Program-made: the position numbers and the translations under genes
Source: Stegostoma tigrinum
Taxonomy: Eukaryota
Reading direction: 5' to 3'
NCBI RefSeq assembly: GCF_030684315.1
Contig: NC_081370.1
Coordinates: 10,237,148-10,301,147, forward strand
Length of the DNA: 64,000 nucleotides
Notes under the pieces: generated by a model
Told to the model about the DNA's origin: nothing
Seen by the model: only the letters and a program-made list of their open reading frames with translations
Database searches by the model: none
Shown: piece by piece, positions 6,808-62,849 of the stretch
Numbering within the stretch: the stretch's first letter is position 1
Layout of the letters: each line of letters starts with the position of its first letter

Positions 6808-6909
6808 CTTGGCTTTTGTGCTCCTGAGATGCTGCTTGGCCTGCTGTGTTCATCCAGCCTCACATTTTATTATCTTGGAATCTCCAGCATCTGCAGTTCC
6901 CATTATCTC
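6808..6909 (+). mobile_element. Single Penelope-terminus copy without ribozyme core
   Basis: Homology starts at GCTTTTGTG (6812). TSD TCATATTTCTGGTG at 6794-6807 and 6910-6923. Confidence 0.85.
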
Positions 6910-7869
6910 TCATATTTCTGGTGGTCTTTTGTGTCCTTCACAAACTTGGTCTCCTGAAATGGTTCAGAGGGAGCAGGCATTTATTTTTCTCTTTATTCTG
7001 TAATAAGATACTTAGTCATTAACAAATCTGTTATTTGTTGCCAAATTCTAATTGCTGTTAAACTGGTAGCATTCTAAGCCATTTCAGAGGACAGTTAAGA
7101 GTAATTTACATTGCTATCGATCACACGTAGACTAGATAAGGACAGCAGGTTTTCTTCCCAAAAGGACATTAGTAAACCAGTTGGGTTTTACAGCAAGGGG
7201 AATCATTACTGAGATTAACTTTATGTTCTCGGTTTATTAATTAACTTAAGTCCCATCAGCTGCAGTGCTCAATGCCCATCCAAGTATCTATGTTGAAACC
7301 TATTCTCACCTTGAACAAGTCCTCAAATGTGACCTTGATTTTCTTTGCTCCAAGGAGAGCAACCTAGGCATCTTCAACCTTGTAGATGGAATCCCTAATC
7401 TGTGAAACCATTGGGGTAAATCTTATTATGGCTCACTGAGATAGGCTGCTGAAAATCAGGCTCCACCATACCCAGTGTTGTCACAAAAATTAGAGATTTT
7501 AAAAGTATGCAAAGTTCCCCGATTTGCCTGATTTTCAGAAATTCCTGGAAAAGGTCATCAGGTCTGAGGAAGGTTCACTTGATCTGAAACATTAATTCTG
7601 ATTTCTCTTCACAGATGCTGCCAGGCCTGTTGAGCTTTTCCAGTAATTTCTATTTTTGTTTCTGATTTATGCAGCATTCATAGTTCACTGAGTTTTTACC
7701 TGATTTTTAGACCCTGCTTAATAGAAGGCATGGACCAGGTTCCTGCTCTAAAGCAGCATTATTATTTATGACAGGGAACTAGACCGTTGTCATATAACAC
7801 TTGTAATTAAAATTCTATCCCCTTATACCACTCTCCTTAGACTGAGACAGACAGGGTAAGCTATGTCAC

Positions 7870-10700
7870 ATCCTCAAAAAATTCCAGAAGATTTGTCAAG
7901 CATGATTTTCCTTTAATGATCTATGCTGACTTGAACCAATCCTGTCACCATTTTCCAAATGCGAGTTATTACATCCTTGTTAATTGACTCTGGCATTTTC
8001 CCCACCACTGATAGCCAGGTTAACCAGCCTATAATTCCCCTTGTTCTTTCTCCCTCCTCTTTTTTAAAAATGTGGGGTTACATTAGCTATATTCCAGGCC
8101 ATTGGATCTCTTCCAGAGTCAATAGAATGCTGGAAGATGATTAGCTATTTGTCCACTATTTTAAGCACCACTTTCCTAAGCAATCTTCAAGCCCTGGGGA
8201 CTTATCAGGTTTTAATCTCAAGAATTTCTGCAAGACCATTTCCTGACTAATGAGGATCTCCTTCAGTTTCTTCTTCATGCTTGATCATCTGTCCTACAGC
8301 ATTCCTGAAAGGTTATTTGTGTCCTCCCTAATGAAGACCAATCCAAAGTATTTGTTCAACTGGTTTGCCATCTATTTGCTGCCCTTTATGAATTCACCTG
8401 ACTCTATCTGAAGGGACCTACATTTGTCTTCACTGGACTTTTTGCCTTCACAGTTTTTATGTTTTCCACAATCTTATTCTTGTATTCTATTTTCCCTTTG
8501 CAAATTAAACCCTTTGACCTGCTCTGCTGAATTTTAAATTTCTCCCAGTCCTCAGGTTTGCTGCCTTTTTTGGCCAATTTATATGCCTTCTCTTTGGCTT
8601 TGACACTATTCGTGATTTCCCATGTAAGCCATTTTTGAGCCACCTTCCCTCCTTTACTTTTATGCCAAACAGGGATATCCCATTTTGGAAGTTCATCCAT
8701 GTGTTCTTTAAATGTCTGCCATTGCCTATCCACCATCAACCCCTTAAGTATCCTTGGCCAGCTTAACCTAGCCAATTGATATTTCATATCATCAAAGTCA
8801 GTTTTATTTAAGGTGAGGACCCAAGCCTCAGATTTAACTGGTACTCTCCATTTCAATGAAGAATTCTACCATATTATGGTCAGTCTTCCCCAATAGATCT
8901 GTCACCACAAAGTTGCTAATTAATCCTCTCATTACACAATACCCAGTCTAGAGTGGCTTGCTCTTAGTTGGTTCCTTGACACAAGCTTGTGTTTCCAGAT
9001 TGACCTGTTGGACTTTAACCTGGTATCATGTGATTTCTGACCTTTTCTACCCGAGTCCTACACCAACATCTCCACATCTTCACATATTTGTCGAGGAAAC
9101 CATCCCTCATACACTACGTGAAATCTTCCTCCATCACATTACTTCCTGTTTAGTTAATTCAGTCAATGTGCAGATTGAAGTTACATATAATAACTGCATT
9201 CATCTCTAATTTTCTGTTTGATGCCAACCTTACAACTACCGTTTAGTGATCTGTACACAACTCCCACTCATGTTTCTTTTTCCTTTGGTGTTCTGCAGCT
9301 CCACCTATTCAGATTCCATATCATTAAGGCTAATGTCCTCCATTAGTATTGTATTAATCCCCTCCTTAACCAGCAACTGCACCACACCTCCCTTTCTTTT
9401 CCATCTATCTTTCCTGAAAATTGAATACCCCTGGATGTTGAGTTTCCATACTTGTATCACCCTGAACCCTGGTCTCTGTGATCCCAATTACATCCTATCA
9501 ATTAATAACTGTCTACACAGTTAAATTCATTACAAATGCTCCTTATATTGAGAAACAGAGCCTTCAGGCTCATTTTTTTGACATGCATTGCCCTTTTAGA
9601 ATTATGATGTAACGTGCCCTTTTTGATTTTTGTTTTTGCTTTCTCTGTCCACCACTTTCACAATCCCTCTTACTTTCCTTTGTTTCTGTCTCCACTTTAC
9701 TTCCCTCCGACTTCCTATACTGGTTCCCATACCCTCTGCCATATTAGTTTACACCTTCCCCAACAGCACTCACAACCAATCCCTCGGGACATTGGTTGAA
9801 GACCTGCCCAGATGCAGACTGTCCAGTTTATATTGGTCCTACCTCCCCCAGAATCGGTTCCAGTGCCCCAGGAAATTTGAATCCCTTGCTCTTGCACCTT
9901 CCTTCAATCTGTGTATTCGTCTTATTCATCTTGTCATTCTTACTCTAGCATGTGGCACAGGAAGCAATCCTGAGATTAATATCTTTTGAGGCGCTACTTT
10001 TTAGTTTAACTCCTAATTCCCTAAATTCAGCTTGTAGGACCTCATCCTTTTTATTTATCTCTATCATTTGGGCCTGTGTGCACTACCACAGCTGGCTGTT
10101 TACCCTTTTTGACCAGAATGTACTCCAGCTGCTCGAAGATACCCTTGACCCTTGCATCATGGAGGCGACATACTTTCCTGGACTTTTGTGGCTGAAGAAA
10201 TGCCTATCTATTCCCCTTATAATTGAATCACTTATCACTGTAACTGTGCCACTTTTTTTTCCTGCTCTCCTGTGCAGCAGAGCCAGCTATGGTGTCATGA
10301 ACCTGACTGCTGCCGCCTTTCCCTAGCAAGCCATCTCCCCAGTAGTACCCAAAACGGTATACCGGTTTTGCACAGAGATGACTGCAGGGAACTGCATTGC
10401 CTTTCGGCTTTTCCTCTGATTGGAGATCACCCATTCTTGATCTCCCTCAGTAATGTTTAGCTACTGTGTGACCAACTTATTGAACATGCTATCCGTGATC
10501 ACGGATACTCCGAAGTGAATCCAGCTGCAGCTCCAAAGCCTATCAAGCGGTCAGACAGGAGGTACAGCTAGACAGAATTCCTGCACATGAAGAAGTCTGG
10601 GACATCAGATGGGCCCCTAAATTCCTACATTGCACAGGGGGAGCATTACACAGGTCTGGGATCTTCTGCCATGACTTAATCCTTAAGTTAACTTAACACT
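7870..10700 (-). mobile_element. CR1 LINE 5' portion (ORF1 and endonuclease), degenerate
   Basis: LNIQGYSIFRKDR.KRKGGVV..LVKE (APE domain); linker peptides in ORF 8404..8856. Confidence 0.8.
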
Positions 10701-11004
10701 AGTAGCAAAGCCAAGAGAAAATGAGAGAAAAGAAAAACTGCTTATAAGTCTCCCACCACTCGCTAACCTCCTGGCTTTGACTTCACAGTTCAATTTCTTT
10801 CTACTTCTCCTTTACCCTTGTGCCTTCAGCAGTTGTGGTAGCTCACTTCTCCTCCAACTGCCTTACTTCATTGCTGGTCACCGTCCTCACCAAAGTCCGG
10901 TATTCACCAAAGACTAAGCTTAATTTTTTTAATATCAAAATGTATTTTATTCATAAAATATATCTTGGTATATCTTTGCTGCGAGTGCTGGATAGGTTGT
11001 CCCA

Positions 11005-12985
11005 CTGAGGCAAGGAAAGGATGGTAAAGTGAAGGAACCTTGGAAGACAAGACATGTGGAACATCTAATCAAGAGGAAGAAGGAAGCTTATTTAAGGTTG
11101 AGGAAGCAAGGATTGGACAGGGCTGTAGAGGGTTACAAGGTAGCCAGGAAGGAACAGAAGAATAGACTTAGGAGAGCTAGAAGAGAGCATGAAAATGCCT
11201 TGGTGAATCGAATTAAGGAAAATCCTGAGGCATTCTTTACTTATGTGAGGAGCAAGAGGATGGCCAGAGTGAGGCTAGGGCTGATCAGGGATAGTGGAGG
11301 GAACTTGTGCCTGGAGTCGGAGGCGGTAGGGGAGGTCCCTAATGAATACTTTGTTTCAGTATTCACCAGTGAGAGGGACCTTGTAGTTTGTGAGGACAGT
11401 GTGAAACAGGCTGATATGCTCGTACAGGTCAATGTTGGGAAGGAGGATTTGCTAGAAATTTTGAAAAACATGAGGATAGATAAGACCCCTGGGCCAGATG
11501 GGATATACCCAAAGTTGGTACAGGAAATGAGGGAAGAGATTGCTGTGCCTTTGGCAATGATCTTTGCGTCCTCACTATCCACTGGAGTAGTACCAGATGA
11601 TTGGAGGGTTACAAATGTTATTCCTTGCTTAAGAAAGGGAATAGGGATAGTCTTAGGAATTACAGACCAGTCAGTCTTACTTCTGTGCTGGGCAAATTAT
11701 TGGAGTGGATTCCGAGAAATAGTATTTATGATTATTTGGAAAAGCATTTTTTGATTAGAAATAGTCAGCATGGCTTTGTGGGGGGCAGGTCATGCCTCAC
11801 AAAACTTACTGAATTGTTTAAGGATGTGACAAAACACATTGATGAAGGTAGAGCAGTGGATGTGGTGTATATGGATTTTAGCAAGGTATTTGGTAATGAG
11901 GCATGAGATTCAGTGAAATGTGGCTGTCTGGATGCAGAATTGGCTGTCCAATAGAAGACAAAGGGTGGTCATAGACGGAAAGTAATCAGCCTGGTGCTCG
12001 GTGACCAGTGGTGTTCCGCAGGGTTCTGTTCTGGAAACTCAGTTGTTTGCGATCTTTATAAATGACTTAGGTGAGGAAGTGGAAGTGTGGGTTAGTAAGT
12101 TTGCCAATGACACGGAGGTTGGTAGAGTTGTGGATAGTGTGAAGGGCTGTTGTAGGTTGCAGTGGGACATTGACAGGATGCAGAGCTGGGCAAAGAAGTG
12201 GCGTATGGAATTCAAAGCAGAAAAGTGTGAAATGGTTCATTTTGGAAGCTTGAGTTTGAATGCAGGGTAGTGGCAGGATACTTGGCATTGTGGAGGTACA
12301 GAGGGATCTTGGGGTGCACATCCATAGACCCCTCAAAGTTGTGACCCAAGTTGATAGGGTTGTTAAGAAGATGTATGGTGTATGGCTTTCATTGGCAGGG
12401 CGATTGAGTTGAAGAGCAGTGAGGTTATGCTGCAGCTCTACAAAACCCTAGTTAGACCACACTTGAAATATTGTGTTCCGTTCTGGTCACCTCATTATAG
12501 GCAGTATGTGAAAGCTTTAGCAAGGGTGTGGAGGAGATTTACCAGGATGCTACCTGGACTGGAGGACAGGTCTTTTAAGGAAAGGTTGAGGGAGCTAGGG
12601 CTTTTCTCATTGGAGTGAAGAAGGATGAGAGCTGACTTGATAGTGGTGTACAAGATGATGAGAGGCATAGATAGAGTGGATACCCCGAGACTTTTTCCCA
12701 GGGCAGAAATGACTATAACAAGGGGGCATAATTTTAAGGTGATTGGAGGAAGGTATAGCGGAAATGTCAGACGTAGATTCTTTACTCAGAATGGTGGGTG
12801 CGTGGAAAGCATTGCCAGCTGTGGTAGTGAAGTCAGATACATTGGGGATATTTAAGTGCCTCCTGGATAGGCAAATGGATGATAGTAAAATGTAGGGTTT
12901 GCAGGTAAGTTTGATCTTAGAGTGAGATAGTAGGTAGGCACAACATCATAGACCGAAGGGCCTGTACTGTTCTATGCTCTATATA
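11005..12985 (+). mobile_element. CR1 LINE ORF2 (RT) and 3' UTR, frameshifted
   Basis: KTPGPDGIYP, NYRPVSLTS, QHGFVGGRSCLT, SGVPQGSVL, SKFAND. Confidence 0.92.
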
Positions 12986-13661: not shown

Positions 13662-13810
13662 AGATAACAAAGTGTGGAGCTGGATGAACACAGCAGGCCA
13701 AACAGCATCTCAGGAGCACAAAAGCTAGATGCTGCTTGGCCTGCTGTGTTCATCCAGCTCCACACTTCGTTATCTTGGATTCTCCAGCAACTGCAGTTCC
13801 CATTATCTCT
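13662..13810. mobile_element. Penelope-terminus fold-back mini-element lacking the ribozyme core
   Basis: The left arm ends at AAAAGCT (13726) and joins an inverted right arm. Confidence 0.85.
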
Positions 13811-14140
13811 CTCCCTCCAAGAAACCACCTCAGTTGCTTCTCCGTAGCGCCCCCTATTTCCCTCTTGAATAAGAGTGTTGCAGCAGCAGTTTGCCAATGT
13901 TCTGGGACATTTTTAGAATCTAAGGATTCTGAGAAAGATTGCTTTCAGTGCATCCACATTCTCTATAGCTACCTCCTTTAAAATCCTAGGATGTAATCCT
14001 TTGGGTCCAGGCGACAGTGACTTCTAGCCCTGTTGATTTCCCTGTTACTTTTTCCTCCAGTAATAGTTATTGTGTTTCTTTCCTCCTCAACTCCCTTTAT
14101 ATCCTTGATGGGTGGGAAATTTCAGTGAAGCTAAATGCAT

Positions 14141-14237
14141 TTCTGAAGAAGGGTCTCAGCCCAAAACATCAGCCTTCCTGCTCTTCTGATGCTGCTTGGC
14201 CTGCTATGTTGATCCAGCTCTACACTTTGTTATCTCA
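14141..14237 (+). mobile_element. Single Penelope-terminus copy (degenerate hammerhead)
   Basis: CTGAAGAAGGGTCTCAGCCCAAAACATCAGCC... followed by the family body. Confidence 0.8.
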
Positions 14238-16699: not shown

Positions 16700-17368
16700 A
16701 TTGCTGAAAAAGACATGTTGTCAAAATGTTTTGTCTTGCACTGATCAGGACTTATGCAAGAATTTAAGGGGGTCAGTGTTTTATGTTCTGTGAAAAGAGA
16801 GTGGTCAGTAGACTCTGACATTGCTCAGTGAAATGAACCAGCGAATGACTGTCACTTGTTTTCTTAAATGGAAGCTTAGGTAATGTGTGTACATGTTCTT
16901 TCTGTCTGTGAAGAACAAGACCCTGTGTTTTAATATTTGTAGCTACGAGTAAGTTCAGGTGCATCACACTACGAGCTCAACTACTCATGATCATTTTGTA
17001 AACGTCCAATCGAGGAATCTCATTTGATGTCAGACACTGTGTTATATATTTTGACTGTACAGATTGGTTTTATACACTTAGAACTTTGCCTGTTGCAAGT
17101 ATCTGAAGATGTTCTGTTCGTCAAACAAATCAGTAAACCTGGTCGAGATAGTAGGAACTGCAGATGCTGGAGGATCTGAGATAACAAGTTGTAGAGCTGG
17201 AGGAACACAGCAGGTGAAACAGCATCAGAGGAGCAGGAAGGCTAAAGCACAGTCAGCAGTCTGTTCACATGTGATATAAAACTTTCCCCTTTACATTAGC
17301 AGTTGTATGAATGTCTTGATGAGTAAAAGGTGAGAAACTTTGACAAAATGTGCTCCTTTTTCAGCAAT
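16700..17368 (-). mobile_element. Old Penelope-like relic with inverted terminal segments
   Basis: Inverted similarity between 16700-16751 and 17313-17368. Internal minus-strand peptide HLNLLVATNIKTQGLVLHRQKEHVHTL resembles GIY-YIG C-termini. Confidence 0.55.
17145..17243 (-). mobile_element. Single Penelope-terminus copy without ribozyme core
   Basis: Family homology stops at GGAAGGCT (17243). Confidence 0.8.
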
Positions 17369-19149: not shown

Positions 19150-19895
19150 CTACATAAAAGAAAAGAGTCCAGTCTGGCATGTACATTTCTGTCATGCTGA
19201 AAACCCCTGTCTACATTAACAGAGCTGAGGTGGAGGGGTTCAAGAACGATGATAACCAGCGATCTGTCTGGACCACCCACGTATATGTGACGGTCAACAA
19301 GGCACAACAACACATCTTCTTCCTCAGGAGGCTTAAGAAATTCAGCATCCCCATAAGGACGCTCACCAACTTTTGCAGATGTACCATAGAAAACATTTTA
19401 TCTGGGTGCATAATGGCTTGGTTTGGCAACTTCTCTCCCCAGGACTGTAAGAAAGTACAGAAAGTTGTATGTACAGCTCAGACCATCACGGAAGCCAACC
19501 TCCCATCCATGGACTCAATTTACACTTCTTGTTGCTGCAGAAAAGCTGCCAACATCATCAAAGATCCCACCCACCACAGTACTCCTCTCTTCCGACCTCT
19601 TCTGTTGGGCAGAAGATACAGAAGCTTGAACTCACAGCGACGGGTTCAAGAACATCTTTGTCCTTGCTGTTATTAAACTGCTGAATGGGCTGCTTTAACT
19701 TTAATCTAATGTTGATGTTGCATTTGTGCACATCTTGTGCAGTCATAACGTTGTATGCCTCGCCGTGCCTAAGCACGCCTTGATCTGTATGTCCTTGTTT
19801 GTTACAATCTGCCTGCACTGCATTCAAATCAAAACTTGTCTCTGTACTTAGGTACATGTGATGACAATAAATCAAATTATATCAAATCAAATCGA
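19150..19895 (+). mobile_element. Rex1/Babar-like LINE 3' end
   Basis: KAQQHIFFLRRLKKF...TLTNFCRCTIENILSGCIMAWFGN...ANIIKDPTH; AATAAA followed by (ATCAA)n tail. A related scrap lies at about 2330-2425. Confidence 0.8.
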
Positions 19896-20099: not shown

Positions 20100-23000
20100 T
20101 TACAATTAAAAACAAAATAAGTCATAGTGAGGAGGATGGTTATAAAGGGAACAAAGAGATGGCAAATGAATTAAATATGTAGAGATAGCAAGAACTACAG
20201 ATGGTGGAGTCAAAGACAACAAAGTGTGGAAGTGGAGGAACATAGCAGGCCAGGTAGCATCACATTTTGGCTTGGGAACCTTCTTCGAAAAGAAAAGTAC
20301 AGAAAGTTGTGTGTACAGCCCACCCGAAACATCAGCTTTCCTGTTCCTCTGATGCTGCCTGACCTGCTGTGTTCCTCCAGCTCCACACTGTGTTATCTCA
20401 ATTAAATATGTAGTTTGGTTCTGTCTTCACAAAGGAGGATACAAGTAATATCTCAAAAAATGTTGGGGAATGCAGGGTCTAGTGAGAAGGAGGAACTGAA
20501 AAATCAGTATTAGGGAAACAGTTTCGAGGAAATTGATGGGATTAAAGACTGATAATCGACACCTCAGAGTACTTAAAAAAATAGTGGATGCATTGATGGT
20601 GATTTTTCAAGATTCTATAGACTCTGGAACTGTTCCAATGGATTGGAGATTTACTAATGTGACCCCACTATTTAAAAGAGGTGGTAGATGGAACATTGTG
20701 ACTTATAGACTATTGCTCGTGCGAAAAATGCTACAGTCCAGAATAAAAGATTTAATAGCAGAGTACTTAGAAAACTGAGACAAGACCAGACAGAGTCAGC
20801 ATGGATTTACAATAGGACAGCTGTGCTTGACAAGTCGACTGGAATTTATTGAGGATATGACTAGTAGATATTGATAAGGGTGAGCCAGAAGATGTGTTTA
20901 CTTAGACTTACAGAAAACCTTCAATATGGTCGTATAAAAGAGGTTGAAAATAGTATGCTGATAGGAAACAAAGAGTAGAAATAAATAGGGCATTTTCCAA
21001 GTGACTGCCAGTGACTAGTGGGTTATCATAAGGGTTAGTGCTTGTACCCCAGGTATGCATTAATAATATACATTAATAATTCAAATGAGGGAACCAAATG
21101 TAATCCCTCCAGGTTTGAGTGGAAGGGTGAACTCTGAGGAGTGATTTGAACAAGTTGGTTGAGTGGGCAAATACATGGCGGATGAAGCATAATGTGGATA
21201 TATGTGGGTTTATCCACTTTGGTAGCAAAACCAGTGCAGAGATTTGGTTTTCAATCAGTAATTTTCTAATTTTGTGGTGGTTCAAATCACTCCCAGACCC
21301 CTGGTTATAGACACTGGACTTATTTAGGGAATGTGAAGCAAAGCAGGCAGTAACCAAGTGCTTCAGGGCAAAAAATCTGTGTTTATTTAAAAATATAAAA
21401 GGTAAGTATAAAGAAGAAATACAGGAAATACAGGTAAATGCAATAGACAGGGAAATTGATACAATCAACAATACCGACGAGAGTAATACCGACGATTAGC
21501 CAGATCAAATACTATTAGACCTTAAAAACAATGGTTTTAATTACAGAAACTTTAATCAAGCTTCCTATTCTTGGGATCCCAATACACTGTAACCACCTGT
21601 CTTCCCCTCCCAGCTAGCTAAGTCAGAACTTTGGGGTCTGGGGAGTTTCAGTTCAACACTCAGGAAAACGTGGTCTTGAAATGTGTCTGGCTGTTCCTGC
21701 TCACCACACCAAGAGCCTGGATGAAGACTGCATAGGCTTTTCGCTTGGGTTTAATCCGCTGATACAGTAAGATACGTAGTGAATATATAAAGTAAGTGCT
21801 TAGTTTTCTTTACTTTCTGCTGGTTTTGAGGGTCCGGTTTTCACCTCAGAATGTGTCTAAGGCTTTGTGGTGTTGGTCGGATCATTTGGTTTTCAGAGTT
21901 TGTCAGTTCTTGGATCTACTGGTTGTCTGCTGTGTTTCCCCTGGTTCTGAATGGGTCCGTGTCTCATAGCTCTTACTTGGAAGCTCTCAGAACATTCTTG
22001 GACTGTTCTTGGGAATCACTATTGGAATCCCTCTTGGAAATAGCCATTGGAATTAGCTATTGGGATTATCCTTGAAAAATAGCTGCTGGAATTGCTGTTG
22101 GAATTTCTCGCCAAAAATAGCTGCTGGAATTGCTGTTTTAAGTGAGATTGGGTTCTCCATTTATACTGATTGTGGCCCCTTATTTTCGTGCCAAATCTGT
22201 GTCCCTCCGAAATCAATTGTTTTCCTGATCACTGTTTGTAGGCCCCACACTGTCTGTGCTTATAACTTGAGGTGTAAAAGCTATCTTGGGTAGAGTCTTG
22301 TTAGTATCAGTTGATTGTTCTTTTAGAGTGGAGGTGTAAAATGGAATTTCAGGTTGAACTATAGTCCCAGTCAGAAATCCCCATTCTGTTGGCTCTGTTC
22401 TGTTTTTGCTGCAGCTTCAGCCCAGAGTTTTTGCCTGGTATTTTAGATGACTGGGCAAGTTTAGGATCTTGTCCAGCATTTAAGACGATGACGATTTTTG
22501 CTTGATCTTATGGCAGGTAGGTAGATTATTATCTAAAAGGAAATAATTTGGAAAGTAGGAGGTGCAACGAGATCTCAGAATCCTTGTGTACCTTGTATAC
22601 CAGTAATTGAAGGTACACATGCAGGTGCAGCAGCTGGTAAAGAAGGCAAATGGTATATAGGTCTTTTTACGACAGGATTTGACTACAAGAGCAGGGATGA
22701 CTTGCCGAAATTATACCAGACCTTGGTGAGTGTTGAGTGCTTTTTTGGTCTCCTTATCTGAGGAAGGATGTTCTGGTTATGGGGGTAGTTGAACAAAGCT
22801 TTACCAGACTGAATCCTGGGATGTGACGGACGTATTGAGAGACTGGATTAGTTAGGTCTGTATTTGCTAGTGTTAGAAGAACAGTATGTATAGGTGGGAG
22901 GTACAATCTCATTGAAATCTATAAAATTTCAACAGGACAAGACTGGGTAAATGCTGGAAGAATGTTCCGGAACAAGGTGACATAGTTTAAGAATACAGGC

Positions 23001-25935: not shown

Positions 25936-25936
25936 A

Positions 25937-26294
25937 ATCATAGAATCCCTCGGTTGTGGGAACAGGCCATTTGGCCGAACAAGTTCATACCACCCCGCCA
26001 ATCAGCATTCCACCCAGGCCCATTCCCCTACCCTTTCCCAGAAACCCTGCATTTCCCATGTCTAATCCACCTTAATATATACACCCCTGGTCACTACAGG
26101 CAATTTAGCATGGCCAATCTGCCTAACCTGCATATCTTTGGACTGTGGGAGGAAACTGGAGCACCTGGAGGAAATCCACGCAGACAAAGGGAGAATATGC
26201 AAACTCCATACAGACAGTCACCCGAGGGTGGAATTGAACCCGGGTCCCTGGTGCTGTGAGGCAGCAGTGCTAACCACTGAGCCAATGTGCCACC
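25937..26294 (-). mobile_element. HE1-like V-SINE
   Basis: Same head and central domain. Confidence 0.85.
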
Positions 26295-26341
26295 CTGAAA
26301 GTGAGACTTTCCAAGGCTCGCCACTTACTTCACCAGGAAGA

Positions 26342-31050: not shown

Positions 31051-31450
31051 TTGGCTGTTAAACACTTTTTTCTTGCAAAACTGTTATTTCTGATGTGGAT
31101 AATTCATAGTTAGTTGTTAAACACTGTATCTTCATGCAAAAATGTTGTTTCTGATACCCTTCATGAGTGAAATCAGTAAACCTGAGATCTCTGTTTGAGT
31201 TTTATCCCTATGCTAAGTATGAAGAATTTCCTATCTTGACATAGAACAATAAAATCCTTTCAATATGAAGGTCTATGTAGTCTTTCGAATCCATACCGTC
31301 CTTGGTTTTGGTTTTTCAGTAACATCAGAAGATATTGGGGTTTCAGAAGAATTGGAAGCTTCAGTGAATGTCTCTTGGATCCTACTCTATCTGAATTTAT
31401 TCTTGATGTTTTTCCTCCTGAAATGGAGAAGTGCATGTGAAAATCTTCAT

Positions 31451-31583
31451 TTCCAAAGAAGGATCTAGGCCCGAAACGTTAGTAGCCTTCCTGCTCCTCT
31501 GATGCTGCTTGGCCTGCTGTGTTCATTCAGCGCTACACCTTGTTATCTCAGATTCTCCAGCATCTGCAGTTCCTGCTATCTCT
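31451..31583 (+). mobile_element. Single Penelope-terminus copy
   Basis: ...TCTAGGCCCGAAACGTTAGTAGCCTTCCTGCTCC... followed by the family body. Confidence 0.8.
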
Positions 31584-31832
31584 GAATCTCCTTTTTGTGT
31601 TTCTGGGATGTTCCTTTATTGGAGCAGTTAACTAACAATTACTGTATCTGGATTTTAACTACAGCTTTTAAATAAATTGTGTTTTGCTTAACATCAAATA
31701 GCTTGATCAATGGTATTGCATCTGCGACACATTACATTTGCCTTCTAAATAAGAAAAAGTTACGGTCTAGCCTACCTTCTTTAAATATTTTTGAAGGGGT
31801 CTGATCTGGTCCATAACAAGGTTGCTTCAATA

Positions 31833-32318: not shown

Positions 32319-32448
32319 GAGACAGCAAGAACTGCAGATGCTGGAGGCTTCAGCCCATCCTGATGAAGGATCATGAGCTGAAACGTCAACTTTCCTGCTC
32401 TTCCGATGCTGCCTGACCTGCTGTGTTCCTCCAGCTCCACACTGTATT
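32319..32448. mobile_element. Penelope-terminus copy with short inverted piece
   Basis: CTGATGAAGGATCATGAGCTGAAACGTC at 32360-32387 plus the family body. Confidence 0.75.
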
Positions 32449-32613
32449 AACTATGTCATCCTTCCTGTACTTTTCCTCCACTGATATTATGTTTCTTTCT
32501 ATATTATGACCCCATCCTGTGGACAGAACTGCTAGAGTTGATTTACCATGTTCTCTAAGACAGTCTTCACAACTTTCCTTAAATGACAGGCAAACAGGCA
32601 TTCCCTACAATAT

Positions 32614-32814
32614 GAGACAACAAGGTGTAGAGCTAGATGAACACAGCAGGACAAGCAGAATCAGAGAAGCAGGAAAGCTGACATTTCAGGTCTAGAGCCC
32701 ATTTCTGAAGAAAGGTCTAGACCTGAAAAGTCAGCTTTCCAGTTCCTCTGATGTTGCTTGGCTCTACACCTTGCTGTCTCAGATTCTCCAGCATCGGCAG
32801 TTCCTACTATCTCT
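32614..32814. mobile_element. Penelope-terminus fold-back mini-element (diverged)
   Basis: Inverted arms; CTGAAGA-A-AGGTCTAGACCT-GAAAAGTC on the + strand. Imperfect flanking direct repeat CAT.CCCTAC.ATAT. Confidence 0.8.
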
Positions 32815-33298
32815 AACAATTTCATCCCCTACGATATATTCACTTTATCATTAGGTTAAGCAATACTTATGTGACTGGCCTTGCTGTCTGATGACATATT
32901 TCACAGTTTTTTAAATCAATCTTTATTACTTGACAATGTCAGATCAAATCTAATGGCAGGAAGAACTTTTCAGATTTGACCCGATGGTCCTTGTAACAAA
33001 GCTATTGGCTTTTCCTTGGTGCACATTCTTTGGGGCTCCACCATTTTCTACAGCAGCTTTACAACATAGATAAAATAACAAGAAGGAATCATTAAAGCAG
33101 TAATTGACAATGTGCACCAGGTAGATATCATTTGTGATTAAACAACTTTTCCGTGTGAGTACTATCAAGGGCAAATTTCTAATTAGCACAACTTTCCTTC
33201 AATTTTTCTTTGTTTTCTAACTTTACAGCTGAACAAAAGTGGAAGTTAAAAGATACATTACATAATTACTACAATTCTCATTTTATTTCTCTTCCCAG

Positions 33299-35834: not shown

Positions 35835-36058
35835 AGATAACAAAGTGTGGGGCTGGATGAACAGAGCAGGCCGAGCAGCATTTTAGGAGCAGAAAAGCTG
35901 ACGTTTCGGGCCTAGGCCCTTCATCAGAAAATGATGAAGCATCTCGGCCTGAAACGTCAGCTTTTGTGCTCCTAAGATGCTGCTGGGCCTGCTCTGTTCA
36001 TCCAGCCCCACACTTTGTTACCTTGGATTCTCCAGCATCTGCAGTTCCCATTATCTCT
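35835..36058. mobile_element. Penelope-terminus fold-back mini-element
   Basis: Inverted arms, intact hammerhead core on the - strand. TSD GAACCTGTTTCCC at 35822-35834 and 36059-36071. Confidence 0.9.
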
Positions 36059-37273: not shown

Positions 37274-37487
37274 AGATAACAAAGTGTGAAGTTGGATGAA
37301 CACAGCAGGCCAAGCAGCATCTCAGGACTGAGATGCTGCTTGGCCAGCTGTGTAGCTTTTGTGCTCCTGAAATGCTGCTTGGCCTGCTGTGTAGCTTTTG
37401 TGCTCCTGAGATGCTGCTTGGCCTGCTGTGTTCATCCAGCTTCACACTTTGTTATCTTGGATTCTCCAGCATCTGCAGTTTCCCCTA
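37274..37487. mobile_element. Penelope-terminus fold-back mini-element with internal 39-bp tandem units
   Basis: Inverted arms; units AGCTTTTGTGCTCCTGA.ATGCTGCTTGGCCTGCTGTGT start at 37354 and 37393. TSD ATACTGAATTTT at 37260-37271 and 37488-37499. Confidence 0.88.
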
Positions 37488-39403: not shown

Positions 39404-39629
39404 ATAATGGGAACTGCAGATGCTGGAGAATCCAAGATAATAAAATGTGAGGCTGGATGAACACAGCAGGCCCAGCAGCATCTCAGGAGCACAAAAGCTG
39501 ACGTTTCGGGCCTAGACCCTTCATCAGAGAAGCTCTCTGACGAAGGGTCTAGGCCCGAAACGTCAGCTTTTGTGCTCCTGAGATGCTGCTGGGCCTGCTG
39601 TGTTCATCCAGCCTCACATTTTATTATCT
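39404..39629. mobile_element. Penelope-terminus fold-back mini-element
   Basis: 96-bp inverted arms 39435-39530 and 39534-39629. TSD CCTTCTAACATGTG at 39390-39403 and 39630-39643. Confidence 0.9.
39537..39564 (+). ncRNA. Minimal hammerhead ribozyme core (a mirror copy lies on the - strand at 39500-39527)
   Basis: CTGACGA-A-GGGTCTAGGCCC-GAAACGTC. Confidence 0.7.
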
Positions 39630-43165: not shown

Positions 43166-43169
43166 TGAT

Positions 43170-44654: not shown

Positions 44655-45937
44655 AATGAATTTGAAATTATATGACCAAAGTTTCATTGTTACTGGATCA
44701 AATTCCTGGAACTTTTCACTGAAGAGCACAATGAGCTGCCGCAATTCCAGGAAGCACAGGAATTGGAGTAGACCATTCAGCACCTCAAACCTGTTCCATC
44801 TTTCAGTGAGATGATAGCCAATCTGTGGTCTGACTTCATATATTTGCCTTTGGCCCATATTGCTTAATACATTTGCTTATCAAAAAATTATCTAACCAGT
44901 AATTAACAACTGATCTAGCATCCACTGCTGTTCATGGAAGAGAGTTTCAAATATCTACCATCCTTTATGTATAGATGCCCTTCCTAATATCTCTCCTGAA
45001 TGGTCTAGCCCTAAATCTCAGACTACACCCGCTAGTTCTGGAATCCCCAACCAGTGGAAATAGTTTGTCTTTATCTATCCTGTCTTTTCCTGCCAACATC
45101 TTGAAGATTTTAATCGGATTACCCCTAAAACTTCTTAATTCTAGAGAAAACAGCATAATTTATGCAATCTCTCCCTACAACTTAACCCCTGAAGTTCAGG
45201 TTTTATTCTTGTAAACCTACATTTGAGCTCCCTCTAAAACCAATATATCCTCCCCAAGGTGTGGTGCTCAGATCTTCTCACTGTAATCCAGGTGGGCCTT
45301 ACTGAAGTTTTGTATAACTTTAGCACTATTTCTGCATCCTCGTACTCCATTTCTCTCAATATAAAAGCTAGCATTGCATTAGCCACCTTGATTATTTTCT
45401 GCTACTGTTTGTGACATTTTAAAAATCAATGTACCTAAGATCTCAAGTGTCTTTGGGCATCCACTGTATTTAACTTTATACTCTCTAGGAAATACCTGAT
45501 CTATCTTTTTTTGGTCCAAAATGGATAACCTCTCACTTGCTTACACGGAACTCTATCTGTCAAAGTTTTGCCCGTTCACTTAGTCTGTCAATATCCCTTT
45601 GTAATTTAATGCAATCATCTACACTTTCTACCTAACTTTGTGTCATCAGCAAATTTGGATATATGACTTTCAGTGGCATTATTCAATTTGTTAATACATA
45701 ATGTGATTGATTGAGGCCCTAACCCAGATCCTTGTAGGTTGCACAAAATGAAATTGCTGGAAAAGCTCAGTAGATCTGGCAGCATTGGGTGGAGAGAAGT
45801 CAGAATTATTAGTTTGGTTCAAGGGACCCTTCCTCAGAACCTTGTGGGACACTGCTGGTCAGGTCCTGTCTATTTGAGTACCTACCCATTATCCCCACTT
45901 TCTGTTACCCGCTACTCAGCAAATTCCCCAGCCATTA

Positions 45938-46246
45938 GATGGCACGGTGGCTCAGTGGTTAGCACTTCTGCCTCACAGAATCAGGGGCCCGGCTTTGATT
46001 CCACCCTCGGGCAACTGTCTGTGTGGAGTTTGCACATTCTCCCCATGTCTGTGTGGGTTTCCTCTGGCTTTCCTCTCACAATCCAAAGATTTGCAGGTGA
46101 GGTGGCTTGGCTATGCTAAATTGCCCACAGTGTTTAGGGAAGTGTAAATTAGGGGGATGGGTCTGGGTGGGATGCTCTGAGTGTCAGTGTTGGCTTATTG
46201 GGTCAAAGAGCCTGTTTCCACACTGTAGGAAATCTATGATTCTATG
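45938..46246 (+). mobile_element. HE1-like V-SINE
   Basis: Same structure as 31833-32143. Confidence 0.85.
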
Positions 46247-46438: not shown

Positions 46439-46533
46439 ATAATAAAATGTGAGGCTGGATGAACACAGCAGGCCCAGCAGCATCTCAGGAGCACAAAAGC
46501 TGATGTTTCAGGCCTAGACCCTTCATCAGAGAG
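46439..46533 (-). mobile_element. Single Penelope-terminus copy with hammerhead core
   Basis: Near-identical to 59761-59855. 16-bp TSD CTGTCA(T/A)GAATCCATG at 46423-46438 and 46534-46549. Confidence 0.87.
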
Positions 46534-50450: not shown

Positions 50451-50580
50451 GAGATAGCAGGAACTGCGGATGCTGGAGAATTTGATCTAACAATGTGTAG
50501 AGCTAGATGAACACAGCAGGCCAAGCAGCATTAGAGGAGCAGGAAAGCTGATGTTTTGGGTCTGGACCCTTCTTCAGAAA
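50451..50580 (-). mobile_element. Single Penelope-terminus copy
   Basis: Family body; minus strand CTGAAGAAGGGTCCAGACCCAAAACATC. Flanked by CAGAGCTTTG on both sides. Confidence 0.8.
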
Positions 50581-50694
50581 AAATCAGCAGAGCTTTGCTT
50601 TTGTACTGATGGAAAGTTAGTTTATTTAATATGATAAATTCCATCCATCACTAGCTTCACAATAATCAATGTGCATGCTCTCTTTTTCTTTCAG

Positions 50695-55370: not shown

Positions 55371-55645
55371 GAAATCAATCCTAAAAAGAAGAAATTCCGA
55401 AAAGCACCTTATATATACAAAAAACTTCCTTATCCACAAATTTTTATCTTCAGTATGCTAAAGATAAAAAAAGGCAAAATCTTAAAATAAAAGCAAACAG
55501 CTGAAACTCTCAACCAAAATAAAAAATTAACTGCCATATTGGTTAAGCTGTATACTTTGTTAAGCTCATTAATTGATTTCAATTCTTAGGCATATGATCA
55601 CAATGTTTTAGTGTTTGAAAAAATTATGTTCTATCACTTTTCCAG

Positions 55646-55885
55646 TTCGCAGTGTGTGGACTATGTGGTAATTACAATGGTAATGCAGACGATGAATATG
55701 TAACACAGAATAAATACTTAGTTTCCAATGTACTGACCTTCGCGAATTCTTGGAAGGAAGATCCTACATGCAGAGATGTAACGGAGGTTGTATTTCCATG
55801 TCGCAAAAATCCATATCGTTTGGCCAGAGCTGAAAAAATGTGTGCTATAATTAACAGTAAGGTGTTTGAGCCATGTCACAAGCTG
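55646..55885 (+). CDS. MUC6: Mucin-6-like exon 10 (VWD3 end, start of C8-3)
   Basis: ttccAG / GTGAGT. FAVCGLCGNYNGNADDEYVTQNKY...ANSWKEDPTC...AEKMCAIINSKVFEPCHKL, with the CGLCGN VWD signature. 80 codons. Confidence 0.95.
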
Positions 55886-58800: not shown

Positions 58801-59823
58801 TTCTATTAGATTTCTTGCAGGAAATTTACATGGAGATGATCGCTTAAATGTCCATGTATAATGTTATTATAAATGTGGTAAAATCGTAGGCTGTGTGCCT
58901 TCAAAGTTTAGATTACTCTTTCTGCTAGACCAATGCATGATGGATGGTATGGAGCTATCCTTATACATCTAATACCATTTGACTTTAGGAAATACTCAAA
59001 TTCCCTGCTGGTAAACAGTGGCCTGTTAGCTATGGCTGACACTTCTAGGAGACCAGATATTGCAAAAGATGCATGCAATTTTTCCATTGTCATCCTTGTG
59101 TTTGATAAGTGAACTCTGTGCACATTCTGACATTTTCAACAGGTGACCACAATGACTAAGAAGATTGAGACCATGAAAGGACCTGCCATGTCAATATGTA
59201 ACTGAGTCCAGTTTTTACCCAAACATTCTCACAAATATGGGGTTGTTGCTGGCTGTAAGCTTTGTCCTTGCAGGCCCTCTGGGCACGGTCCGACAAAGCA
59301 GCCATGTCTGCATCCGATCCTGGCAACCAGACATAACTTGTTGCCAATATTTTCATTTTGGACACCCCTGAATGACCCTGGTGGTGTTCAGCCAGTATCT
59401 GGTAGTGACCTTTGCTTGGAACAATCATTCTTGCTTCCCATAATCATATGGCATCCTCCAATATGACCTGTTCTTTCCGTGTCCATAAAGGTTCCGGTTG
59501 TGATAGATTTTTGGTTTCTACCATCACCACCAGCTGTTACACTTTTGCCAAGTCTAGAACTGTGTCCAGAACATTTAAAACCATTACAGACTCTTCCAGT
59601 GACGGCACCACTCGCATCTGTATTTGCTACTTGGCCTCCCAGACAATGATCCAACCGTAATTATACACACTTATTATCAGAATCAACCACTGAATTCAGC
59701 CTGAAGCAATTGACAACATTACATTGTTCTCTTTAAGTTGATCTAGCAGGGATTTGTAGGATAATAAAATGTGAGGCTGGATGAACACAGCAGGCCAAGC
59801 AGCATCTCAGGAGCACAAAAGCT

Positions 59824-59851
59824 GACGTTTCGGGCCTAGACCCTTCATCAG
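59824..59851 (-). ncRNA. Minimal hammerhead ribozyme core in the Penelope terminus
   Basis: Minus strand CTGATGA-A-GGGT(CTAG)GCCC-GAAACGTC: conserved core boxes, 4-bp stem II, palindromic ACGT stem III and GUC cleavage triplet. Stem I is very short. Confidence 0.75.
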
Positions 59852-60075
59852 AGAGGGGGATGGGGAGAGGGAACTGGAATAAATAGGGAGAGAGGGGGAG
59901 GCGGACCGAAGATGGAGAGTAAAGAAGATAGGTGGAGAGAGTATAGGTGGGGAGGTAGGGAGGGGATAGGTCAGTCCAGGGAAGACGGACAGGTCAAGGA
60001 GGTGGGATGAGGTTAGTAGGTAGCTGGGGGTGCGGTTTGGGGTGGGAGGAAGGGATGGGTGAGAGGAAGAGCCGG

Positions 60076-60906
60076 TTAGGGAGACAGAGACAGGTTGGAC
60101 TGATTTTGGGATGCAGTGGGTGGCCGGGAAGAGCTGGGCTGGTTGTGTGGTGCAGTGGGGGGAGGGGACGAACTAGGCTGGTTTAGGGATGCAGTAGGGG
60201 AAGGGGAGATTTTGAAACTGGTGAAGTCCACATTGATACCATTAGGCTGCAGGGTTCCCAGGCGGAATATGAGTTGCTGTTCCTGCAACCTTCGGGTGGC
60301 ATCATTGTGGCAGTGCAGGAGGCCCATGATGGACATGTCATCTAGAGAATGGGAGGGGGAGTGGAAATGGTTTGCAACTGGGAGGTGCAGTTGTTTGTTG
60401 CGAACTGAGCGGAGGTGTTCTGCAAAGCGGTCCCCAAGCCTCCGCTTGGTTTCCCCAATGTAGAGGAAGCCGCACTGGGTACAGTGGATGCAGTATACCA
60501 CATTGGCAGATGTGCAGGTGAACCTCTGCTTAATGTGGAATGTCATCTTGGGGCCTGGGATAGGGGTGAGGGAGGAGGTGTGGGGGCAAGTGTAGCATTT
60601 CCTGCGGTTGCAGGGGAAGGCGCCGGGTGTGGTGGGGTTGGAGGGCAGTCTGGAGCGAACAAGGGAGTCACGGAGAGAGTGGTCTCTCCGGAAAGCAGAC
60701 AGGGGTAGGGATAGAAAAATGTCTTGGGTGGTGGGGTCGGATTGTAAATGGCGGAAGTGTCGGAGGATGATGCGTTGTATCTGGAGGTTGGTAGGGTGGT
60801 GTGTGAGAACGAGGGGGATCCTCTTTTGGCGGTTGTGGCGGGGGTGGGGTGTGAGGGATGTGTTGCGGGAAATACGGGAGACGCGGTCAAGGGCGTTCTC
60901 GATCAC
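60076..60906 (-). CDS. Penelope-like element polyprotein C-terminal part (Cys linker + GIY-YIG endonuclease), 5'-truncated
   Basis: Stop-free 276 aa: CNRRKCYTC cysteine linker, NVVYCIHC...LYIGETKRRLGDRFAEH, RRLQEQQLIFRLGTLQPNGIN. No RT catalytic core present. Confidence 0.88.
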   Translation of the reverse strand: MIENALDRVSRISRNTSLTPHPRHNRQKRIPLVLTHHPTNLQIQRIILRHFRHLQSDPTTQDIFLSLPLSAFRRDHSLRDSLVRSRLPSNPTTPGAFPCNRRKCYTCPHTSSLTPIPGPKMTFHIKQRFTCTSANVVYCIHCTQCGFLYIGETKRRLGDRFAEHLRSVRNKQLHLPVANHFHSPSHSLDDMSIMGLLHCHNDATRRLQEQQLIFRLGTLQPNGINVDFTSFKISPSPTASLNQPSSSPPPTAPHNQPSSSRPPTASQNQSNLSLSP

Positions 60907-62622
60907 TGTGGGGGGAAAGTTGCGGTCCTTGAAGAATTTGTAGTCCGTTATTATTACAAATTTTCATCAGTAAAGGTATTAGTGGAACTTCCTGCCTCCA
61001 AATATAGTCACCAAGCCTTCCTTCTCTACTTGGGTGTATTTACACTCTGCCTTAGCCAAAGCCCTGGATGCACATACTATTGGGTGTTCCTCTCCATTGG
61101 GCAACCTCAGAGCTGATACTACCCCAATACCATACAAGGAGGTATTGCATGTCAGTACCAAATCTCACTTGGGATAATAGTGTGCCAATACCTTCAAGGA
61201 TGATAGCTGTTTATTCACTTCACTGAAAGCTATTGCTTGGCTATGCGACCATTTCCATGGCTGACTGTTTTTTATGAGTTGATGCAAAGATGCCATGGCG
61301 GAGGCCAGGTTATGCATTAACTTTACATCATAATTCAGCAGCCCAAGGAAAGACCTCAGCTCCGGCATAGATGTGGGAGCCAGGGCACCTTTGGTAGCCC
61401 TCACTTTATCTTCCAGCAGGTCTAGTTGACTGTGTGGCGTATGTAGGTCACTTGGGATGTCTAGAACACATATATTTCCCTTCTAAGGCACATGCCCATC
61501 TAGAAAAAAAATCCAAGGACCATGTCCGAGTTGTCAAAGTTCTTTTTATTAATCTTCCCTGTGATTAGCATGTTATCTAGATAAATGGTGACCTGGGGTA
61601 GCCCATGTAAAATGTTATCCATCATTTGCTGAAATATGGTACAGGCTAAAGACACCCCAAGTGGTAATCTCATGTATTGGCACAAATACTTATAGCAATT
61701 CATTATAGCATACTTCTGGGAATCCTCAAGTAATTGCAATTGCATGGCTCATGTACAGCTTTGTGAAGGACAGCCTCTTGCTAAATTTGTGTGTAAGTAG
61801 TCTGTGAAAGGGTTTGGGTATTTGTCCAGTTGTGAAAAGCATTTTACTGTTTGTTTAAAATCCCCACAAAGGCAAACCAATCATTAGGCTTCACAATCAG
61901 TACGACTGGTGATGCCCATTCTGCAATCTAGACTGATGATTTCTTTGTTTTTCAGCCTGCTGATTTTTACTTTAGGTTTTGCCTCTAAGACAAATGGCAC
62001 TGGGCAGGCTTTGCAGAAATGTGGAATTGCTTCTTGGTCAGCATGTAAGGTGATCTTGGTTTGTTTGGTAGTCCCTAGACCTTTCTGAATAGCTTCCAGG
62101 TATTTAATCAGGATTTAACTCAGGTAGCCATTCTCTAATCAAAAAATATTAAGCCAATCTGGATGAATCTTTCTCAATCAATTTTGCACTATCAAGCTTG
62201 GGCCTGAGCCTTTTATATCAATAAGTGGTAATTGAGCCAACTTCCTTAGCATAGGTTCTCAGTCTTGCCAATGTCTTGTACAAGCTCAAAGGTTGAATTC
62301 CAGAGCAAATGTTGTTAAAGACTGCTTTTGCGATCACTGAAATGGCTGTGTCATATCAGCCTCCATTAGAACAGGGTGACCATTTAACCAGATGTTGATT
62401 TTGATTTGTTCTGATTTCGATATTGCTAAGCAATTGAACTGTTCCAAACCAGATGTGGGTGCACTTTCGAGGGCGTGCACTTACCTGGATACCAGCCTCA
62501 GAGAAGATTGTCTTAAAGTTCAAAAGATTCATATTAATCTTGCTTGTCAGATGTTAAAATCTCTCGAAAGATTCGGACTATACTTGATGGAACCTCATTG
62601 AAGAGACTAGTGAGGAAAGTGA

Positions 62623-62849
62623 GAGATGGTAGGAACTGCAGATGCTGGAGAATCCAAGGTAACAAGGTATAGAGCTGGATGAGCACAGCAGGCCAAGCAG
62701 CATCAGAGGAGCAGGAAGGCTGATGTTTCGGGCCTAGACCCTTCTTCAGAAAAGAAAGGAAGGGTCTAGGCCCGAAACGTCAGCCTTCCTGCTCCTCTGA
62801 TGCTGCTTGGCCTGCTGTGTTCATCCAGCTCTACACCTTGTTATCTCAA
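62623..62849. mobile_element. Penelope-terminus fold-back mini-element
   Basis: Inverted arms with partial hammerhead cores. Imperfect TSD TGAGGA(A/G)AGTGA at 62611-62622 and 62850-62861. Confidence 0.85.

Follow-up and report, generated by a model that had tools for sequence, protein, structure and literature searches.

What are the short, ribozyme-bearing repeats scattered through the 64-kb window (the whole stretch of DNA analyzed here): a family that amplifies itself, or the by-products of a larger element? All 14 loci that had been listed besides the one at 59760 were matched by a 200-nt query around 59760, at 76–99% identity. In a wider sample of 1.514 Mb, we found 303 module matches, against 0 in shuffled controls. 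This is a nonrandom sample of 14 blocks, placed at round coordinates or next to the window; block C5 (150 kb of simple-repeat DNA, zero matches) was left out of density figures, which refer to the remaining 1.364 Mb. Short loci occur there at ~100 per Mb, and solo repeat insertions (~140 of 212 sampled loci) outnumber long ones.

Terminal repeats of an abundant Penelope element

The claim that about half of the short copies are fold-backs agrees with our count of 8 head-to-head arrangements among the 14 short loci (13662, 20183, 32319, 32614, 35835, 37274, 39404, and 62623). At 32319, the left arm consists of tail only. Target site duplications (TSDs) of 12–16 bp, said to be frequent, flank 8 of the 15 loci and TSDs of 8–11 bp flank 3 more, with no convincing TSD at the other 4 of 15. 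The module had also been said to begin at the CTGA core. This fails for four of the 14 short loci (6808, 13662, 17145, and 37274), which have no hammerhead core and whose arms begin at the predicted cleavage site or 1 nt past it: numbering the first base after GUC as 0 and core C3 as −28, the arms at 13726, 17243, 37354, and 37393 begin at 0 and that at 6812 at +1. A minimal-hammerhead descriptor matches at only 5 of the 15 loci (6 arms).

The locus at 59760 is a Penelope copy, as the sequence-only reading proposed, but not a full element. It is a 1,181-bp, 5′-truncated, tail-less insertion with an 8-bp TSD (59752–59759/60936–60943), comprising the 3′-terminal third of the ORF, including GIY-YIG (PF01541, E 8e-4, below the cut-off), the 3′ UTR, and the hammerhead module. 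Its core combines CUGAUGA, an extra A, a 4-bp stem II, and GAAAC-GUC, with the predicted cut between 59824 and 59823.

Table 1. Module-bearing features of the 64-kb window.
Feature	Coordinates	Strand	Remarks
5′-truncated young Penelope copy	59760..60940	-	aligns with intact unit (97%) across 1,181 bp
Predicted minimal type-I hammerhead core	59824..59851	-	descriptor match; stem I and II covariation
Single arm, +1 through tail	6808..6909	+	coreless; 14-bp TSD
Fold-back: tail-less arm from predicted cleavage site (13726) and tailed arm from +16	13662..13810	.	TSD not found
Older single tail-less arm	14140..14237	+	begins few nt 5′ of core
Older single tailed arm from exact predicted cleavage site	17145..17243	-	non-palindromic AGCC subtype
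Old fold-back	20183..20399	.	degenerate core; 14-bp TSD
Older single tailed arm	31450..31585	+	decayed core
Old locus: short inverted tail piece and core-bearing tail-less arm	32319..32452	.	11-bp TSD (1 mismatch)
Old fold-back	32614..32815	.	15-bp TSD (2 mismatches)
Fold-back	35835..36058	.	core reached by both arms; 13-bp TSD
Fold-back, two successive 39-nt restarts	37274..37487	.	each from exact predicted cleavage site (37354, 37393); 12-bp TSD
Youngest fold-back	39404..39629	.	tailed arm from −31, tail-less from −32 after G; 14-bp TSD
Single tail-less arm from −32	46439..46533	-	junction G = last base of 16-bp TSD
Older single tailed arm	50451..50583	-	begins just 5′ of core; 10-bp TSD
Older fold-back	62623..62849	.	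12-bp TSD (1 mismatch)

The Penelope origin claimed for the short loci is borne out: they correspond to the pseudo-LTR (pLTR; hammerhead plus tail) of an intact RT/GIY-YIG Penelope element. The intact unit is ~3.66 kb long and stands in tandem at two sampled loci (L013 and L014), a partial tandem that forms the pLTRs. It holds one ORF of ~1,090 aa (1,092 aa) with RT followed by GIY-YIG, both scoring below Pfam cut-offs (RVT_1, E 2.8e-5; GIY-YIG, E 0.004). The module occurs twice, immediately upstream of the ORF and ~230 nt past the stop; the first ATG is at +138, that is, downstream of the module. The very high copy number that had been claimed is likewise seen, with >63,000 exact ribozyme-region matches genome-wide. 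The element, which we take to resemble a shark repeat, is of a known kind with an unusually informative fossil record of insertions. The sequence-only reading attributed mobilization to a Neptune RT/GIY-YIG protein. Mobilization by the RT/GIY-YIG protein that the element itself encodes is supported, and one feature points to the Neptune clade, a CX4CxxC linker between RT and EN read from the 1,092-aa ORF; a CX2-5CxxC linker at this place defines Neptune and is shared with Nematis (PMC8557442).

A predicted hammerhead and two peaks of 5′ ends

The minimal hammerhead with palindromic stem III that had been claimed is recognizable in the module, with core boxes, stem II, and an extra base after position 9 all present. 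A hammerhead descriptor gave 112 matches in 1.514 Mb, compared with 0.3 for shuffled sequence. In stem II, the fourth pair is variable (U-G, U-A, or C-G), and stem I flanking the cut, only 2 bp long, covaries across three families (U-A/C-G, U-A/U-A/G-C, and A-U/C-G). The covariance-model check suggested earlier gave 11 Rfam matches at E ≤ 1, none of them to a hammerhead family. Our ribozyme call is based on the motif, its covariation, and published features of minimal hammerheads. Sub-threshold Rfam matches to miRNA precursors and SRP were rejected as identities, as they are caused by the inverted repeats. The whole module has no more stable a fold than its shuffled versions (z 0.01), and the predicted fold of the monomer is an inactive hairpin in which −28..−23 pairs with −4..+1; its 3′ base lies at +1, a possible RT stall site. 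Judged from sequence, self-cleavage after GUC, at position 0, is likely in living cells.

Arm 5′ ends peak at −32/−31, 4 nt upstream of the core, and at 0. The boundaries had been said to track the ribozyme; they are indeed nonrandom, but the boundary a few nucleotides 5′ of CTGA is not the edge of the ribozyme, since cutting is predicted 28 nt downstream of C3. In the sampled blocks, 20 of 147 young arms end at −32/−31, against ~1 per position nearby. Whole-genome exact counts of the 42-mer from −32 (preceding G, A, and C tallied, T left out) gave 4,528 after G, 724 after A, and 58,089 after C, the read-through base. This is a G:A ratio of 6.3:1, with ~92% of the counted arms that reach −32 reading on past it. 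Among 30 inspected G loci, the G is an extra base of neither partner in 5, and 2 are read-through variants. Three joints listed in run X3, which may be the assembly's own source, also fall on −32 and have the additional G. The G excess must be generic in part, since G is over-represented at the +1 control class as well (G 49, T 37, and C 14 in a hand tally of the first 100 listed). In older subtypes, whose upstream sequence differs, arms stop equally far from the core, often after G. An extra 5′ G in L1 and SVA insertions has been attributed to the cap (PMC3287187). The −32 boundary likely behaves as a capped transcription start.

The human TCT consensus is YC+1TYTYY. The young −32 start fits this form and not the YYCTTTYY form of PMC4102762, while older subtypes have CA+1TTT at the start, an Inr match (PMC5287114). 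Because the TCT fit depends on the form of the consensus, and older subtypes match Inr, we claim no promoter type.

The second class of 5′ ends, absent from the earlier reading, begins at the predicted cleavage site. Genome-wide, 2,634 starts fall at 0, compared with 618 at −1 and 507 at +1; read-through variants account for 11 of 20 in the −1 class, 4 of 20 in the +1 class, and 1 of 30 in the 0 class. Symmetric fold-backs number 566 on the cleavage-site palindrome, against 31 and 21 on two control 4-nt palindromes. Eight of the 281 arms in sampled blocks end at 0 (background 1.6 per position, p 3e-4), and none at +2. In the older subtype, 5 of 66 arms end at 0 (two probably being one locally duplicated event) and none at −5..−1 or +1..+3. 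A G precedes position 0 in 17 of 100 listed rows. The junctions of approximately 60% of the 0 class are palindromic, and an end at +1 or +2 could equally have produced them; unambiguous ends at 0 (~7 of 30, ~600 when scaled) exceed those at +1 (~330) only about twofold. The two base-exact peaks are likely to record the RNA start and the ribozyme cut. A search of mainly open-access literature found no published description of genomic 5′ ends peaking at the ribozyme cut of a PLE, nor of a cap G in PLEs.

Alternatively, both peaks could reflect stalling of the RT on longer RNA that had not been cut, where the core-sequestering hairpin has its base (+1/+2) and at a pyrimidine tract (−32), with an untemplated C giving the G. 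The predicted pairing, the ambiguity of symmetric junctions among 0, +1, and +2, the G excess at the +1 control, and the predominance of read-through at −32 all suit such stalling. We nevertheless consider it unlikely: unambiguous ends favor 0 over +1, no sampled arm ends at +2, and the strong G preference at −32 is set against the few G-preceded rows at 0. The constant stop distance in older subtypes with different upstream sequence also speaks against it, and stalling leaves the scarcity of short-plus-long arm pairs (below) unexplained. For part of the cleavage-site peak, hairpin stalling remains a rival.

Fold-back architecture and its origin

The tail is 36 nt long, and arm 3′ ends lie at about +64 or +100. 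Among 69 head-to-head loci, 61 combine a tailed with a tail-less arm, and no tail-to-tail pair was found. TSDs of 11–17 bp (mostly 13–17 bp) flank 31 of 38 young fold-backs, against 3 of 100 random positions; the TSD finder detected one in only 23 of 79 young single arms. In 27 of the 61 loci, the 5′ reach of the tail-less arm exceeds that of the tailed arm by at least 5 nt, so neither arm was copied from the other. Short and long arms are paired at 4 of 69 loci, against 19.8 expected (p 2e-6), and in 37 of 55 short-short loci an arm lies within the start zone or at position 0 or +1. No two of the 38 young fold-backs share a junction, and the one junction repeat in the 69 head-to-head loci is probably a local duplication. 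Kilobase insertions share the architecture of the short loci. In 43 of 65 loci, the arms resemble each other more closely than age-matched arms do.

We think it probable, on this genomic evidence, that the short loci are terminal-repeat insertions arising from RT run-off on the 5′ repeat of Penelope mRNA, at its capped or ribozyme-cut end. Pol II would start at −32 and the RNA would be capped, the cap being copied as an extra C that is seen as G; a minority of templates would already be ribozyme-cut. The enzyme, probably a dimer, would nick both strands ~15 bp apart, and two cDNAs would be primed, one at either boundary of the tail. Both would exhaust their template after 64–133 nt on the 5′ repeat, giving mini-elements, while on the 3′ repeat they would give long arms. 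The two cDNA 3′ ends would then join, often by microhomology, producing head-to-head repeats. The mini-element copies are likely dead ends, not a self-amplifying family. Less firmly, we lean toward the broader view that thousands of insertions derive from ribozyme-cut as well as capped RNA, which would be direct genomic evidence for germline cleavage, a sense-mRNA template, and a dimeric enzyme joining two cDNAs from two starts, with template jumps at RNA ends yielding short ribozyme tandems and possible retrozyme seeds.

A self-propagating, non-autonomous retrozyme-like family, whose copies would be transcribed, cleaved as dimers or circularized, and reinserted by the Penelope protein, would account for the density of short loci, and PLE-derived retrozymes have been proposed (10.64898/2026.07.22.740005). 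Also in keeping with it are some loci with short head-to-tail repeats, built of core-bearing units at L165/L166, L188, and L190 or of a 0..+98 unit at L243 and L244. However, tail side and arm length vary freely, many copies lack the core, and the module is 98–99% identical to the repeat of the autonomous element, with no private mini-family variants seen. Head-to-tail units each with a complete ribozyme are absent from the window, as are tandem arrays, and 30 inspected loci included a few short jump-made repeats. The separate unit favored by the sequence-only reading is thus quite unlikely: no shared master junction was found, the window holds no tandems, and kilobase insertions look alike.

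Origin of fold-backs from one molecule, by snap-back of a single cDNA or by antisense-template self-priming as for rotifer Penelopes, has been put forward (PMC3846280), and it agrees with the likeness of same-locus arms and the common palindromic junctions. It is very improbable and largely refuted, as each arm has sequence absent from the other, up to ~1 kb, in the 27 loci noted above, and the peaks fall at sense-strand landmarks (the extra G and the ribozyme cut). Plain random 5′ truncation of long cDNAs, without special ends, matches the low-frequency ends at most positions and the 70 of 147 young arms that reach beyond −45, but the sampled and genome-wide peaks refute it, leaving it virtually no chance of being right.

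Relation to known elements

The element has much in common with EN+ Neptune PLEs (Craig et al. 2021, PMC8557442): an ORF with RT, CX4CxxC linker, and C-terminal GIY-YIG, pLTR partial tandems, an inverted 5′-truncated copy, a hammerhead in the pLTR, and a tail at one end (30–40 bp there, 36 nt here). Unlike in the description given there, solo repeats here outnumber long insertions and TSDs are clear; that description, as far as it goes, includes no counterpart of the two base-exact peaks. PAc, a Poseidon element of Anolis carolinensis (Frangieh et al. 2024, PMC11167929), shares the two tail-bounding RT start sites proposed here, along with priming of both strands, a predicted dimer, and a hammerhead at the pLTR-ORF junction. 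It belongs to a different clade, and the module described here is placed upstream of the first ATG. Cleavage in PAc is dispensable in vitro and no RNA-seq reads begin at the cut (PMC11167929), whereas here genomic ends peak at the predicted cut.

Minimal PLE hammerheads (Cervera and de la Pena 2014, PMC4209133) show the same core boxes, extra base before stem II, G10.1-C11.1, and palindromic 15.2-16.2; stem II here is 4 bp and stem I 2–3 bp, as short as in D. virilis. Opposite-strand dual hammerhead motifs 100–700 bp apart were already noted in that account, which presents no in vivo evidence for minimal PLE hammerheads. For the element class, hammerhead cleavage of Penelope RNA in living cells has so far only been inferred. 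Non-LTR retrozymes (PMC7229834; 10.64898/2026.07.22.740005) are likewise non-coding, hammerhead-bearing, and pLTR-related, with large TSDs, but they are head-to-tail tandems, whereas here we find head-to-head or single arms of 64–133 nt with unique junctions. The retrozymes of PMC7229834 have canonical type-I ribozymes and circular RNAs. Full-length L1 and SVA insertions (PMC3287187) share the extra G at a fixed 5′ end and microhomology joins; unlike theirs, the run-off product here would be only ~100–130 nt, because reverse transcription would start internally.

The role of the hammerhead in Penelope elements has been called unclear (PMC8557442), the only element so far reconstituted worked without cleavage (PMC11167929), and the origin of head-to-head repeats, including whether the template is sense or antisense, was left open (PMC3846280). 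The tens of thousands of near-identical copies described here yield base-level predictions on the role of the hammerhead, the need for cleavage, and the head-to-head origin. They also caution against labeling a solo pLTR copy with a ribozyme as a retrozyme, or as a MITE-like or miRNA-like hairpin, in annotation. If true, joining of two cDNAs from two starts would explain the head-to-head repeats found across the Penelope class.

Loci in the window and their parent element

We number the module from the first base after GUC (position 0; window 59823, minus strand), which places core C3 at -28. A similarity search of the window with a query around 59760 recovered all 14 further loci that the sequence-only reading had matched to the module there, at 76-99% identity. 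Its estimate that about half are head-to-head agrees with our count of 8 of the 14 short loci, while its TSDs of 12-16 bp are present in 8 of 15 loci, another three having 8-11 bp. Its statement that the module begins with the core fails for four short loci, which lack any core and whose arms (copied stretches of the element) begin at 0 or +1. Locus 37274 contains two 39-nt segments, both restarting precisely at 0. The 59760 copy is itself a truncated insertion of 1,181 bp.

Next to the 39404 fold-back (two arms head-to-head) lies a duplication of 236 bp (39168-39403 and 40371-40605; 94%, inverted). Because an exon of a vWF D-domain protein (PF00094) lies at 55643-55885, some of the Penelope insertions are probably located in host introns. 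A second hammerhead-bearing family had been overlooked in the first reading.

Other repeat features of the window
Feature	Window coordinates	Characteristics
Second hammerhead-bearing repeat family	7564-7676; related pieces 35503-35686, 45745-45838	Different stem II, GUU cut triplet, 3-bp stem I
Dispersed repeat family, ~300 bp	5919-6238, 25071-25388, 26043-26845, 31834-32147, 42854-43172, 45940-46240	At least 7 copies; SINE-like by size
Decayed frames resembling LINE fragments	4164-4583, 8404-9795, 10996-11754, 19158-19676, 39836-40893	One with an ALKBH8_N match

Genome-wide, the GIY-YIG-bearing frame gave 133 scored matches at 94-100% identity among 314,934 first-look candidates. Three fetched loci carry ORFs of 1,092-1,101 aa with a CX4CxxC linker and with RT and GIY-YIG matches, both below Pfam cut-offs. 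One locus, L013, has a unit of 3.66 kb in which the module with a 36-nt tail lies directly 5' of the ORF and is repeated ~230 nt past its stop. The whole insertion comprises an inverted arm with the tail at its end and a forward arm without one, flanked by a 15-bp duplication. The mini-elements share this arrangement, but their arms are very short. Template jumps enter the ORF within its first 100-200 nt (L213, L214), a stretch that may mark the protein-bound region; in the contig run X3, contig depth over the ORF-start stretch L013:5240-5340 exceeds that of the rest of the ORF start.

Preferred 5' ends and the hammerhead

Our sample, made up of the window and 14 blocks (1.514 Mb in all), contains 281 arms in 212 loci, or ~155 per Mb (short ones ~100 per Mb); one 150-kb block of simple tandem repeat without any Penelope copy (G000:C5:60000001-60150000) was excluded from densities. 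Arm 3' ends concentrate near +64 and +100. The 5' ends show peaks at -32/-31 and 0, contradicting the even spread expected from random truncation. A literature search of incomplete coverage, with two key papers outside it, found no prior report of these peaks.

Of the 147 young arms, 14 have their 5' end at -32 and 6 at -31, while neighbouring positions have about one each; 70 continue past -45. In exact counts across the genome, the base before the 42-mer that begins at -32 is C (read-through) in 58,089 copies, G in 4,528 and A in 724, T being left out of the count. Of 30 G-preceded loci inspected, two were read-through variants, five had a single extra G foreign to both donors and five had longer extra sequence ending in G; in the remainder, the G was the last TSD base or partner-ambiguous. 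Arms starting at -31 number 1,860, and by hand tally of the first 100 matches listed the preceding base is G in 54, A in 23 and T in 23, although the control position +1 likewise leans to G (G 49, T 37, C 14 of 100 listed, also tallied by hand), a caveat for any cap reading. In run X3, which may be the assembly's own source, 3 of 12 joints listed arrive at -32 with an intervening G. In older subtypes with different upstream sequence, ~26 of 31 core-reaching arms stop, by eye, within a few bases of the core, often after G. Since an extra 5' G is ascribed to cap copying in L1 and SVA in the relevant part of PMC3287187, and an internal promoter is described for Penelope (PMC2377424, in part), we infer from these genomic ends that the -32 zone would be a capped transcription start. 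Most core-reaching arms of older subfamilies stop at this zone, whereas ~92% of the exact young matches continue past it; either the balance between mini and long products may have shifted with time, or old long arms may be detected less completely.

At the second peak, counting only starts with two mismatching flank bases, 2,634 arms begin at 0, against 618 at -1 and 507 at +1. Mutated read-through copies made up 11/20 of the inspected -1 class, 4/20 of the +1 class and 1/30 of the 0 class. Joins without microhomology were about 7/30 (~600) for 0 and about 13/20 (~330) for +1. The palindrome at 0 lies at the centre of 566 symmetric fold-backs, compared with 31 and 21 for another two of the module's 4-nt palindromes, although such a junction is compatible with ends at 0, +1 or +2 alike. 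The sampled blocks have eight arms ending at 0 (P = 3e-4 versus background) and two at +1, while no arm ends at -1 or +2. In the older subtype, 5/66 arms end at 0, two probably representing one duplicated event and some having 2-nt microhomology. G precedes 0 in just 17 of 100 matches listed (hand tally), fitting the expectation for an uncapped end.

A minimal hammerhead descriptor found 112 motifs in 1.514 Mb, versus 0.3 in shuffles; the covariance-model search proposed earlier found no Rfam hammerhead match in the window. Three families are present, the third (A-U stem I) in sampled blocks, and stem I shows covariation among them (U-A/C-G or U-G; U-A/U-A/G-C; A-U/C-G). Motif features agree with the minimal hammerheads described in part of PMC4209133. 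Two features count against activity: stem I of this family is 2 bp, and the predicted monomer fold is a hairpin in which the cleavage region is paired to the first core box. Cleavage is thus probably rare or protein-assisted, paralleling that reported for an Anolis element (PMC11167929). Ribozyme cleavage appears the likeliest cause of the peak at 0, a reading we favor with moderate confidence; stalling of reverse transcriptase at the predicted hairpin is a live rival.

Fold-back assembly and known systems

A tailed and a tail-less arm are paired in 61 of 69 head-to-head loci, and tail-to-tail pairs are absent. TSDs of 11-17 bp flank 31 of 38 young head-to-head loci, versus 3 of 100 random positions. 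Young unpaired arms, with TSDs detected by our finder in just 23 of 79, are a less well understood class. Because the tail-less arm reaches at least 5 nt further 5' in 27 of the 61 tail-plus-no-tail loci, the arms are not nested and two cDNAs are needed. Pairs of short and long arms are depleted (4/69 observed versus 19.8 expected), which suggests that the two cDNAs of a locus begin within one and the same repeat of a single RNA. Self-priming on an antisense template, favored in the relevant part of PMC3846280, would also yield fold-backs; here, non-nested arms and sense-strand landmarks at arm ends speak against it.

The proposal of a retrozyme-like, self-propagating family is not supported. 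No junction recurs among the 38 young fold-back loci, which disfavors a master mini-element. Furthermore, retrozymes are defined, in the relevant passages of PMC7229834 and 10.64898/2026.07.22.740005, as head-to-tail tandems; the mini-elements are not. Short tandems made by template jumps do occur. Those of core-bearing units at L165/L166, L188 and L190 resume at -32 behind an extra G, and are possible retrozyme seeds. At the separate loci L243 (G000:C1:4383691-4384125) and L244, exact 0..+98 units repeat head-to-tail with an identical junction bearing one extra C; possible explanations are several rounds of re-initiation or a circle of ~100 nt.

In the Penelope class, a one-sided tail on inverted truncated copies is standard (PMC8557442, in part), and hammerhead pairs on opposite strands were already noted in 2014 (PMC4209133). 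The element belongs to a known Penelope type, and its copies here are a testable record of the Penelope mechanism.
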